Source of the DNA: Escherichia coli
GTDB taxonomy: Bacteria > Pseudomonadota > Gammaproteobacteria > Enterobacterales > Enterobacteriaceae
NCBI RefSeq assembly: GCF_024700885.2
Contig: NZ_CP117016.1
DNA: 64,000 nt
Strand: one strand, 5' to 3'
Within the stretch, counting starts at the first letter, position 1. Every line of letters begins with the position of its first letter. A program made the position numbers and the translations under genes. Below, one piece after another: positions 25,101 through 26,746 of this stretch. A model generated the notes under the pieces. That model saw only the letters and a list, made by a program, of their open reading frames with translations. It ran no database searches and was not told the origin of the DNA.

Positions 25101-26347
25101 TACAGCATGGAGAGCCACTGGTCGAGAGCCGCTACCTCTACGACCCGCTGGGACGGCGAATGGCGAAACGGGTATGGCGGCGGGAGCGTGACCTGACGGG
25201 GTGGATGTCGCTGTCGCGTAAACCGGAGGTGACGTGGTACGGCTGGGACGGCGACCACCTGACGACGGTGCAGACCGACAGCACACGTATCCAGACGGTA
25301 TACGAGCCGGGAAGCTTCACACCGCTCATCCGCATCGAAACAGACAACGGCGAGCGGGAGAAAACGCAGCGGCGGAGCCTGGCGGAGAAGCTCCAGCAGG
25401 AAGGGAGCGAGGACGGACACGGCGTGGTGTTCCCGGCTGAACTGGTGCGGCTGCTGGACAGGCTGGAGGGGGAAATCCGGGCAGACCGCGTGAGCAGTGA
25501 AAGCCGGGCGTGGCTTGCGCAGTGCGGGCTGACGGTGGAGCAACTGGAAAAACAGGTGGAGCCGGAATACACACCGGCGCGAAAAGTTCATCTTTACCAC
25601 TGCGACCACCGGGGCCTGCCGCTGGCGCTCATCAGCGAAGACGGAAATACGGCGTGGAGCGGGGAGTATGATGAATGGGGCAACCTGCTGAATGAGGAAA
25701 ACCCGCATCACCTGCACCAGCCGTACCGTCTGCCAGGGCAGCAACACGATGAGGAGTCGGGGCTGTATTATAACCGTCACCGGTACTACGATCCGTTGCA
25801 GGGGCGGTATATCATCCAGGACCCGATTGGGCTGAAGGGGGGATGGAATCTGTACCAATATCCGCTGAATCCAGTGCAACACGTTGATCCATTAGGGCTT
25901 AGTACTATGATAATAGGTAACGGCCCCGTTCCTGATAATCCTTTTGGGCATGCTGCGGCGGCAAATCGATATGGATTAATGAGTTCGGGAACTGGGGATG
26001 AGATGGGAGCCTCTGTCTCTGATTATTTTAAAAAGATGCAACCCCGCAGAGATACCTGGATTTGAATAATAGATACAACAGATGAAGAAGAACAATGTAT
26101 GATGAATAAGGCAATAGACCTTAATAAAAAACTAAAAACTATTAACCTCGGGCCTCTTCCTGTTTTAAATAATTGTTTTAGCCGAACGAACATGATTTTT
26201 GAGGCGTGCGGGTTTAACAACCCCTCTATGAATACAAATGCGCCTATAAGCCTACAAGTGCTCGGTGAGCTTTATGGATATCAAAGATATATTATGCCTA
26301 AAGGTCCTTTCACTGGATTCCCATTTGAATTTCAAGAGGTAAAGTAA
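22117..26347 (+). pseudogene. rhs: Second Rhs effector gene, disrupted (in-frame TAA, +1 frameshift in a C7 tract, in-frame TAG, in-frame TGA in the toxin region)
   Basis: Track ORFs 22117..23562, 23585..24304, 24356..26065 and 26099..26347 together reconstruct one Rhs protein, with a complete N-terminal region ([13 protein letters not shown]...GAPTGVACSVCPGG...) and a core near-identical to Rhs1. Confidence 0.8.
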
Positions 26348-26746
26348 ATGGAAATGCTTGGGAATATATTAGTGATAATTATTTCCATGATAATTATATC
26401 TTGTGATTATTATAATGCTGGCATGGACTATCAAGATAATATAGCCCTCGAGCAAGTCGTAACATGGGATTCTGATAATATATTCACACCTAATATCTTT
26501 GAACATAATGGAAGATGTTTTATGAAGAAAAATGAAACATGGATGTTATTAAATGGAGATGCAACACCAAACATTAGAACAATGAGCAATAAGAAAATAG
26601 AATGCCTGGAGAAGAGTGAAGTAGAATGGGCTAGTAGGGTTTGCGACAGTATCACAGACAAGGAAAGGGAAAATCTGAAGGCATTAATATGTAGCAAACC
26701 AGCTAAATCAGTTAATACAGGCAAAAGACCAGCGTTAGGATATTGA
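26348..26746 (+). CDS. Putative immunity protein for the Rhs2 toxin; N-terminal hydrophobic, lipoprotein-like segment
   Basis: 132 aa; start overlaps the preceding stop (TAAATG); N-terminus MEMLGNILVIIISMIIISCDYY; low GC. Confidence 0.5.
   Translation: MEMLGNILVIIISMIIISCDYYNAGMDYQDNIALEQVVTWDSDNIFTPNIFEHNGRCFMKKNETWMLLNGDATPNIRTMSNKKIECLEKSEVEWASRVCDSITDKERENLKALICSKPAKSVNTGKRPALGY

Follow-up and report, generated by a model that had tools for sequence, protein, structure and literature searches.

A predicted permuted NlpC/P60 toxin tip and a putative lipoprotein immunity gene at the end of a decayed Rhs effector gene of Escherichia coli

Introduction

Tox-Act1, a toxin of the Salmonella pathogenicity island 6 (SPI-6) type VI secretion system (T6SS), has a permuted NlpC/P60 core, shows toxicity in the periplasm alone, requires His43 and Cys151, degrades phosphatidylglycerol and phosphatidylethanolamine to lysophospholipids, and is neutralised by Imm-Act1, a protein with two transmembrane helices (Nicastro et al., PLoS Biol 2026, PMC12994826). 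The same authors treat Tox-Act1 as sister to DUF4105/Lnb and as related to TseH, YiiX, and LRAT, and one E. coli protein, QMP79959.1, stands in the DUF4105b sheet of their tables (PMC12994826). Here we analyse Rhs2, a damaged Rhs effector gene, together with the gene that follows it, in a 64,000-nt stretch of Escherichia coli DNA (assembly GCF_024700885.2, contig NZ_CP117016.1; hereafter 'the window'). An original prediction, made from the letters alone, had described the end of Rhs2 as a toxin module of unrecognised type, split by an in-frame TGA and followed by a lipoprotein-like immunity gene. We consider it probable that the module, taken as a whole, is a decayed T6SS Rhs effector with a permuted NlpC/P60 toxin of the lipid-attacking type and a lipoprotein immunity partner.

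Pseudogenisation is common among E. coli Rhs elements with displaced tips, such as K-12 rhsE/ydcD and the Rhs-CT series (Ma et al. 2017), and the Rhs2 element shares their order: vgrG, G+C-rich Rhs core, DPxGL motif, A+T-rich tip, immunity gene, core vestige, and H-repeat ISAs1 element. K-12 rhsE/ydcD was considered as an equivalent of the pair studied here and was rejected: the rhsE tip and its partner ydcD (160 aa) form another toxin/immunity pair.

Results and discussion

A G>A nonsense codon divides the toxin tip of Rhs2

The original prediction held that the reading frame of Rhs2 stops at 26063–26065 and resumes in frame to 26347, and that two open reading frames (ORFs), of 569 and 82 aa, are one toxin domain cut by a nonsense codon. 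Sequence and translation bear this out. The features concerned are as follows:

25886–25900, plus strand: DPLGL motif, boundary of Rhs core and toxin tip (translation; G+C drop from 0.63 to 0.395)
25901–26347, plus strand: toxin domain, predicted permuted NlpC/P60-like His-Cys enzyme, 148 codons plus stop, interrupted at codon 55
26063–26065, plus strand: TGA nonsense codon W55* in the tip (TGG in intact alleles; TGA 61-mer in 33/561 genomes)
26099–26347, plus strand: 82-aa ORF, remnant of the toxin C-terminus (M67–K148), in frame with the Rhs2 tail; hypothetical protein WP_000981126.1 of the Prokaryotic Genome Annotation Pipeline (PGAP)

A boundary of the PxxxxDPxGL type, followed by a tip of different base composition, is present at 25886–25900: the Rhs core has a G+C content of 0.63, the tail of the toxin 0.395, and the immunity gene 0.34, and the drop, right after DPLGL, marks the usual Rhs core/tip boundary. 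ORF 24356–26065 stops at the TGA, and the same frame (24356 and 26099 are both 2 modulo 3) resumes with IIDTTDEEEQCMMNKAIDL and continues to the TAA at 26345–26347. A stop-free run of 94 codons in DNA of 39.5% G+C has a chance of about 0.002, by arithmetic from base composition. Over 481 bases around the codon, strain GF43, in which the toxin is intact, differs from the window at a single base, TGG vs. TGA; intact E. coli alleles in general carry TGG and are otherwise identical across the site. Homologues have Trp at this position, and W55 is invariant in the close toxin subfamily and sits in the predicted central strand (residues 52–57) of an AlphaFold model. On these comparisons, the tip stop reads as a single G>A nonsense mutation, W55*.

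To determine how the allele is distributed we used a 61-base query centred on codon 55, which had matches in 561 complete genomes: the exact TGA version in 33, and versions with one or two differences in 528. Because the exact allele occurs in 33 independent complete genomes, the TGA is not a sequencing error, and resequencing of the site, which the original prediction had proposed, is unnecessary. The distribution indicates that the TGA allele is real, inherited, and in the minority. The surrounding module is more widespread: window positions 25880–26760 are 100% identical to strain 1190 and have matches in 566 of 5426 complete E. coli genomes.

The TGA is only one of four inactivating lesions in Rhs2:

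22117–26347, plus strand: Rhs2, a full-length Rhs effector gene turned pseudogene by four lesions (tblastn comparison with intact Rhs of GF43; PGAP)
23560–23562, plus strand: first in-frame stop in the Rhs2 body, frame 1 (...GYNSQL*LTSVTYPDG...; homology runs past the stop)
23681–23682, plus strand: frameshift from frame 1 to frame 2, position approximate (junction of two tblastn segments)
24302–24304, plus strand: second in-frame stop in the Rhs2 body, frame 2 (...DPAEQWQ*DEHGWL...; exact 61-mer in 32 genomes)

In tblastn, residues 1–520 of GF43 Rhs align in frame 1 (22117–23682) and residues 520–1409 in frame 2 (23681–26344), with 91% identity to the annotated 'RHS element core protein' over residues 520–1409. 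An uninterrupted Rhs2 reading frame, as a functional effector would have, is absent from the window, which has two body stops, one frameshift, and the tip TGA; the identical gene of strain 1190 is annotated by PGAP as 'frameshifted; internal stop'. The 61-mer around 24302–24304 is exact in 32 genomes and has one or two base differences in 2203; since 32 genomes have this stop in common, the pseudogene is old within the lineage. Roughly 500 of the 5426 complete E. coli genomes have the intact form, a protein of about 1400 aa; single-copy intact versions stand in GF43 (same site, vgrG...yafV) and WCHEC000837 (yncH site). Strain 1190 has the identical locus, with vgrG, hcp, and tssA-K immediately upstream. 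The three upstream lesions plus the tip TGA make Rhs2 a lineage-specific pseudogene, and the sequence comparisons identify it as a T6SS Rhs effector gene inactivated in one E. coli lineage. The proposal of a toxin decaying through the TGA is thus right in that the TGA is real, and too narrow in that three other lesions accompany it.

Broken versions of the module also occur elsewhere. In strain N3 (locus L020, 1781–6412) a frameshift lies where core and tip meet, and the tip stands apart as an ORF of 146 aa; in ATCC 8739 the same toxin module has been inactivated independently by an IS1 insertion. The annotation of both strains still has a hypothetical protein in the place of the immunity gene. 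In Xylophilus sp. Leaf220 (locus L013, 2501–2961) a distant toxin is split by a stop between its His and Cys parts, with an intact Asp+2 lipoprotein gene directly 3' of it. Decay like that of the TGA-split toxin is therefore found in an unrelated genus as well.

The tip is predicted to be a permuted NlpC/P60 His-Cys enzyme

The description of the tip as being of unrecognised type holds for sequence libraries: the repaired 148-aa tip had no meaningful match in Pfam, NCBIfam, PADLOC, or the PDB (phmmer and profile searches), and a literature search by RefSeq protein accession, for the intact Rhs, the toxin fragment, and the immunity protein, found nothing. It does not hold for structure and family analysis, which place the tip in the permuted NlpC/P60 class, near TseH, Tox-Act1, and DUF4105. 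Two codons are central to this assignment:

25949–25951, plus strand: predicted catalytic His17 codon (CAT), invariant in 51 family members; upstream of the TGA
26174–26176, plus strand: predicted catalytic Cys92 codon (TGT), in an NNCFSRT motif, invariant in 51 members; downstream of the TGA

A profile of close homologues (54–98% identity), searched against 1.84 billion cluster representatives, retrieved 353 clusters at E<=1e-3, of which 193 reach E<=1e-10. Proteins as long as 2489 aa have this domain as their C-terminus; many of them are named RHS repeat-associated, and Rhs/YD proteins and other long toxins are among its carriers. Across 51 diverse members, N13, P14, G16, H17, G25, S28, G30, G36, R50, and C92 are invariant. 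His17 precedes Cys92 in sequence, and both are conserved, which is the order expected of the permuted NlpC/P60 superfamily.

Structure prediction of the fused tail, which the original prediction had suggested, gave a confident, papain-like AlphaFold 2 (AF2) model of the repaired tip (predicted local distance difference test, pLDDT, 91.8; predicted template-modelling score, pTM, 0.87), in which Cys92 lies at the N-terminus of helix 92–102. The modelled tip has the papain-like arrangement, a Cys at a helix N-terminus packed on a beta-sheet, with a structural match to known members. A Foldseek search of the AlphaFold database at 50% clustering (AFDB50) returned E. coli and Hafnia Rhs tips first and then proteins annotated DUF4105 or 'Lnb N-terminal periplasmic domain', as well as many Rhs tips. 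In a Pfam scan of the 51 members, weak Lnb_N/DUF4105 matches appeared in 7 (in 2 of the 51 at E<=1e-3; best 2e-6) and Peptidase_C97 matches in 3, and DUF6695, the family of the TseH clade, matched 0 of the 51. The results indicate that the tip, as modelled, is a circularly permuted NlpC/P60 papain-like His-Cys enzyme. Since the TGA parts His17, left on the Rhs fragment, from Cys92, which falls in the 82-aa ORF, neither piece could be catalytic.

The following gene encodes a predicted inner-membrane lipoprotein

The gene directly after the toxin was called lipoprotein-like in the original prediction, with a start overlapping the toxin stop. The overlap (TAAATG) is as described, and comparison with homologues strengthens the lipoprotein call:

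26348–26746, plus strand: immunity gene, 132 aa, predicted inner-membrane-retained periplasmic lipoprotein (lipobox IISC19, Asp20, conserved Cys)
26363–26365, plus strand: K6N (codon AAT), in the n-region of the immunity signal peptide; Lys at loci with intact toxin

The ORF begins at the TAAATG overlap with the N-terminus MEMLGNILVIIISMIIISCDYY and has its own Shine-Dalgarno sequence, AGAGG, 8 nt upstream of its ATG. Its hydrophobic N-terminus leads into a lipobox of the type [LVI][ASTVI][GAS]C, ILVIIISMIIIS-C19 (I-I-S-C19), followed by Asp20, and every homologue, the least similar at 36% identity, keeps Cys19, Asp20, C57, C86, C99, and C115. The most distant immunity homologue, which lies beside a 62%-identical toxin, has a classical lipoprotein signal, MRGIKKLILFLSASLVAC-D. 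Asp at position +2 is the E. coli signal for inner-membrane retention (Lol avoidance), and paired cysteines suggest a periplasmic domain. We predict from these features that the 132-aa protein is a lipoprotein retained at the inner membrane through Asp+2, with a periplasmic domain probably stabilised by two disulfides. Searches of the protein against NCBIfam, PADLOC, and Pfam gave noise matches alone.

One lipoprotein feature, a positively charged n-region, is absent from the window protein. Its n-region is MEMLGN (net negative), vs. MEMLGK beside intact toxins and MRGIKK in the distant homologue, and K6N removes the sole positive charge. Apart from the tip codon, the 881 bases depart from GF43 at K6N alone, and the Asn6 61-mer occurs in 33 genomes, including every TGA genome listed.

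To extend the analysis to other members of the toxin family, we inspected ten loci with distant toxins. In all ten, the gene right after the toxin encodes a lipoprotein or a membrane-anchored protein; the ten genes differ in sequence, and among the lipoproteins four have Asp+2 and two have ankyrin repeats. The ankyrin-repeat lipoproteins, from a Methylovulum metagenome-assembled genome (MAG) (locus L005, 2999–3445) and an Anaerolineaceae MAG (locus L006, 547–1005), are immunity candidates, so that the toxin family would pair with several unrelated immunity folds, all of them exported. Exported or membrane-anchored immunities across the family are the main argument that the toxin acts at the periplasmic side of the inner membrane, to which the gene comparisons point.

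Relation to Tox-Act1, TseH, Lnb, and YiiX

Tox-Act1 proper was retrieved through an Aeromonas plasmid homologue; P0206 matches the cloning and mutagenesis primers of PMC12994826. In hhalign, a 26-sequence Tox-Act1 alignment matched the profile of the window family with a probability of 62% and E 7.5e-5; the match spans 79 columns and takes in the Cys motif. No overlap of accessions or organisms was found with tables S3 (including S3A) and S4 of PMC12994826. Because the relation in the profile comparison is remote, the window family appears, on sequence, to be a distinct family within the Tox-Act1 superfamily and not Tox-Act1 proper.

The two families have much in common. Both are T6SS-linked antibacterial toxins (toxicity is inferred for the window family) with a permuted NlpC/P60 core, a catalytic His followed by a Cys in an N-N-C-x-T/S motif, and a membrane-associated immunity; in both, some members are fused to Rhs, PAAR, or CDI carriers, and Pfam matches (DUF4105, Peptidase_C97) are weak or absent. 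They differ in the spacing of His and Cys, 75 residues in the window family vs. 108 in Tox-Act1, and in their motifs, NGPxxxNPFGH...RRD...TTPEQ...DNCxxRT vs. TETKGTGH...YTYGRYG...GNNCTT.

Other described enzymes stand further off or have other roles. TseH of Vibrio cholerae (VCA0285, PDB 6v98, DUF6695) has 7% identity to the window toxin and is a stand-alone cargo effector, whereas the window toxin is an Rhs tip. Of the Pfam families, DUF4105/Lnb_N (PF13387; Bacteroides lipoprotein N-acyltransferase) gives the best matches to members of the toxin family, and many AlphaFold database neighbours are annotated with it; it too has a permuted His-Cys core and acts on the periplasmic side. Lnb, however, is a housekeeping membrane enzyme encoded among lipid-metabolism genes, is neither secreted as a toxin nor accompanied by an immunity gene, and the window protein misses its model. 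YiiX/YebB-like permuted papain enzymes (Peptidase_C92; PDB 2if6, 3kw0) have 9–13% identity, are not toxins, and lack an immunity partner, and Pfam C92 matches are absent for the window family.

Proposed mechanism and alternative explanations

Starting from the lesions, the genome distribution, the fold, the conserved dyad, and the immunity export signals described above, we infer a substrate, a compartment of action, and an immunity function as follows. In intact alleles, the Rhs shell would release the 148-aa tip after DPLGL. In the target cell the tip would cut ester- or amide-linked acyl chains of membrane lipids, by analogy with Tox-Act1, TseH, YiiX, DUF4105/Lnb, and LRAT; the candidate substrates, phospholipids and perhaps lipoproteins, would be reached at the periplasmic face of the inner membrane, with lysophospholipids and lysis as the expected outcome. 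The producer would be protected by the 132-aa Asp+2 lipoprotein, whose periplasmic domain would bind the toxin. In the window, the G>A change would leave His and Cys on separate inactive fragments, the three upstream lesions would block translation of the Rhs shell regardless of the TGA, and the immunity ORF would survive, served by a ribosome-binding site of its own. Attack on membrane acyl lipids is, by analogy, the most likely mechanism, and we favour it somewhat, because of the combination of exported immunities, a permuted fold, and the biochemistry of Tox-Act1.

Several observations weigh against this proposal. The window toxin matches no Pfam model even at E<=10, PF13387 included. The relation to Tox-Act1 proper is remote by profile, and a single Tox-Act1-type sequence compared with the family profile gives a probability of 5%. 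Tox-Act1 is biochemically characterised, whereas the window family is known here from sequence and model. The immunities are unrelated: a Cys-rich lipoprotein with one signal peptide in the window vs. the two-helix Imm-Act1. The AF2 model of the window immunity protein is mediocre (pLDDT 70) and had no structural match among PDB folds, and for these reasons binding of toxin by immunity protein is proposed from gene position. Toxins carried as Rhs tips more often act in the cytoplasm. TseH was for a long time taken to hydrolyse peptidoglycan, and a cell-wall target is thus conceivable.

The first alternative concerns why the immunity gene is still present. The original prediction took an intact immunity gene beside a decaying toxin as retention of an orphan immunity, and selection might indeed have kept the gene because it shields the lineage from E. 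coli that fire the intact toxin. In the window the immunity ORF is intact, full-length, and equipped with its own Shine-Dalgarno sequence while its cognate toxin is inactive, and this part of the claim stands. The toxin is intact in most of the approximately 560 carrier genomes, and therefore a threat to the lineage exists. Separate toxin losses (the N3 frameshift, the ATCC 8739 IS1 insertion, and the Xylophilus sp. Leaf220 split) spare the immunity ORF. Retention of orphan immunity genes has been described for T6SS loci (review PMC6730261). Other observations speak against selection. K6N, linked to the TGA, has cost the n-region its sole positive charge, and in at least two genomes of the lineage, VTB96933v and GPEC856, ISCro1 lies within the immunity gene. 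Neutral decay predicts equally well that a 399-bp gene would outlast a 4.2-kb gene with four lesions. Promoter-like sites are not above shuffled expectation, which holds for the promoter and terminator scan as a whole. We regard retention by selection as plausible but unproven, and lean slightly against it.

ISCro1 is an IS66-family element and is inserted about 160 nt after the immunity start in VTB96933v and GPEC856, which are chicken isolates (loci L018, 4183–6798, and L019, 2728–5061). GPEC403-625 has the same pattern in its annotation.

The second alternative, and the chief competitor for the mechanism, is that the toxin is a peptidoglycan amidase or endopeptidase like the NlpC/P60 T6SS effectors of the Tse1/Tae family, and not a lipid enzyme. 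A periplasmic lipoprotein immunity would fit such an enzyme equally well; the permuted fold and the Tox-Act1 biochemistry favour attack on lipids, and we consider an amidase unlikely.

A third alternative, to which we assign little weight, is that the toxin family is a separate permuted NlpC/P60 branch, nearer to Lnb than to Tox-Act1, that attacks lipoprotein acyl chains or misdirects acyl transfer at the outer leaflet of the inner membrane, so that Asp+2 immunities sit at, or mimic, the substrate.

UGA is the leakiest stop codon of E. coli, and if tRNA-Trp misread it the wild-type Trp would be back in place; even so, an error of sequencing or assembly, or a TGA that is decoded by readthrough or recoding (as Trp or selenocysteine) to give a functional toxin, is close to refuted by the 33 independent genomes with the exact allele, by the upstream lesions, a frameshift among them, that block translation of the Rhs shell, and by an Rfam search of 25600–27100 in which no selenocysteine insertion sequence (SECIS)-type or other RNA family scored and sub-threshold noise alone appeared, and therefore no recoding element.

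The preferred explanation, a T6SS effector that probably attacks the inner membrane of target cells, bears on a common E. coli weapon. About one in ten complete E. coli genomes (the 566 of 5426) carry the tip and immunity pair, mostly intact, under the mere annotations 'RHS element core protein' and 'hypothetical protein'. Assignment to the permuted NlpC/P60 class, with a predicted inner-membrane lipoprotein immunity, gives this T6SS weapon a concrete, testable function, and would extend the lipid-targeting toxin class of Tox-Act1 and TseH to a large Rhs-borne family of 353 clusters. The useful result is that an 'unrecognised' tip can be assigned to this toxin class; the pseudogene is biologically ordinary. 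The TGA itself, as one of four lesions, is of little weight, and illustrates the recurrent decay of the module, of which the N3 frameshift, the ATCC 8739 IS1 insertion, and ISCro1 in the immunity gene of some chicken isolates are other cases.

Chromosomal setting and the neighbouring Rhs1 gene

Two features close the Rhs2 element downstream of the immunity gene:

26789–26881, plus strand: vestige of an Rhs core end (LLRHPG*QYDDESELHYNWHRYYNPGQG) with an internal stop, between the immunity gene and the ISAs1 element (translation)
27027–28163, plus strand: ISAs1-family (H-repeat) transposase gene, which closes the Rhs element (378-aa ORF; ISAs1 family annotation in strain 1190)

The stretch equivalent to 26789–26881 in locus L001 is annotated by PGAP as a partial Rhs core with an internal stop, and the vestige is the trace of an older displaced tip. 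The ISAs1-family transposase is intact in the window and is a pseudogene with an internal stop in both GF43, where the toxin is intact, and N3, where the toxin is differently broken.

The T6SS-1 cluster itself is complete (tssA to tssB, hcp, and vgrG; window 1–17864) and is without pseudogenes in the annotation of strain 1190. Both Rhs cargo genes that adjoin it are damaged, and the T6SS genes are annotated as intact.

The other cargo gene, Rhs1 (17931–21578), is the first Rhs gene after vgrG and is followed by a second ORF at 21591–22040. Close to the 5' end, about 575 nt of the intact GF43 Rhs are absent from Rhs1, in which nt 127 runs directly into nt 702; PGAP labels Rhs1 'missing N-terminus'. 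Its core/tip boundary is DSLGL, vs. DPLGL in Rhs2. Its tip has an HEFAH zinc-peptidase motif and a weak Peptidase_M91 match (E 0.056), and may be the MPTase-type Rhs-CT1 of Ma et al. The gene 3' of Rhs1 encodes 149 aa with a signal peptide (MMKYLMVLLSLFSASVLG). The 5' third of Rhs2 (22117–23492) has only 78% identity to GF43 Rhs, whereas the start of Rhs1 (17931–18052) is of the GF43 type, with 94% identity. The tandem Rhs genes thus differ in origin, which suggests that the pair arose by insertion or recombination and not by simple duplication.

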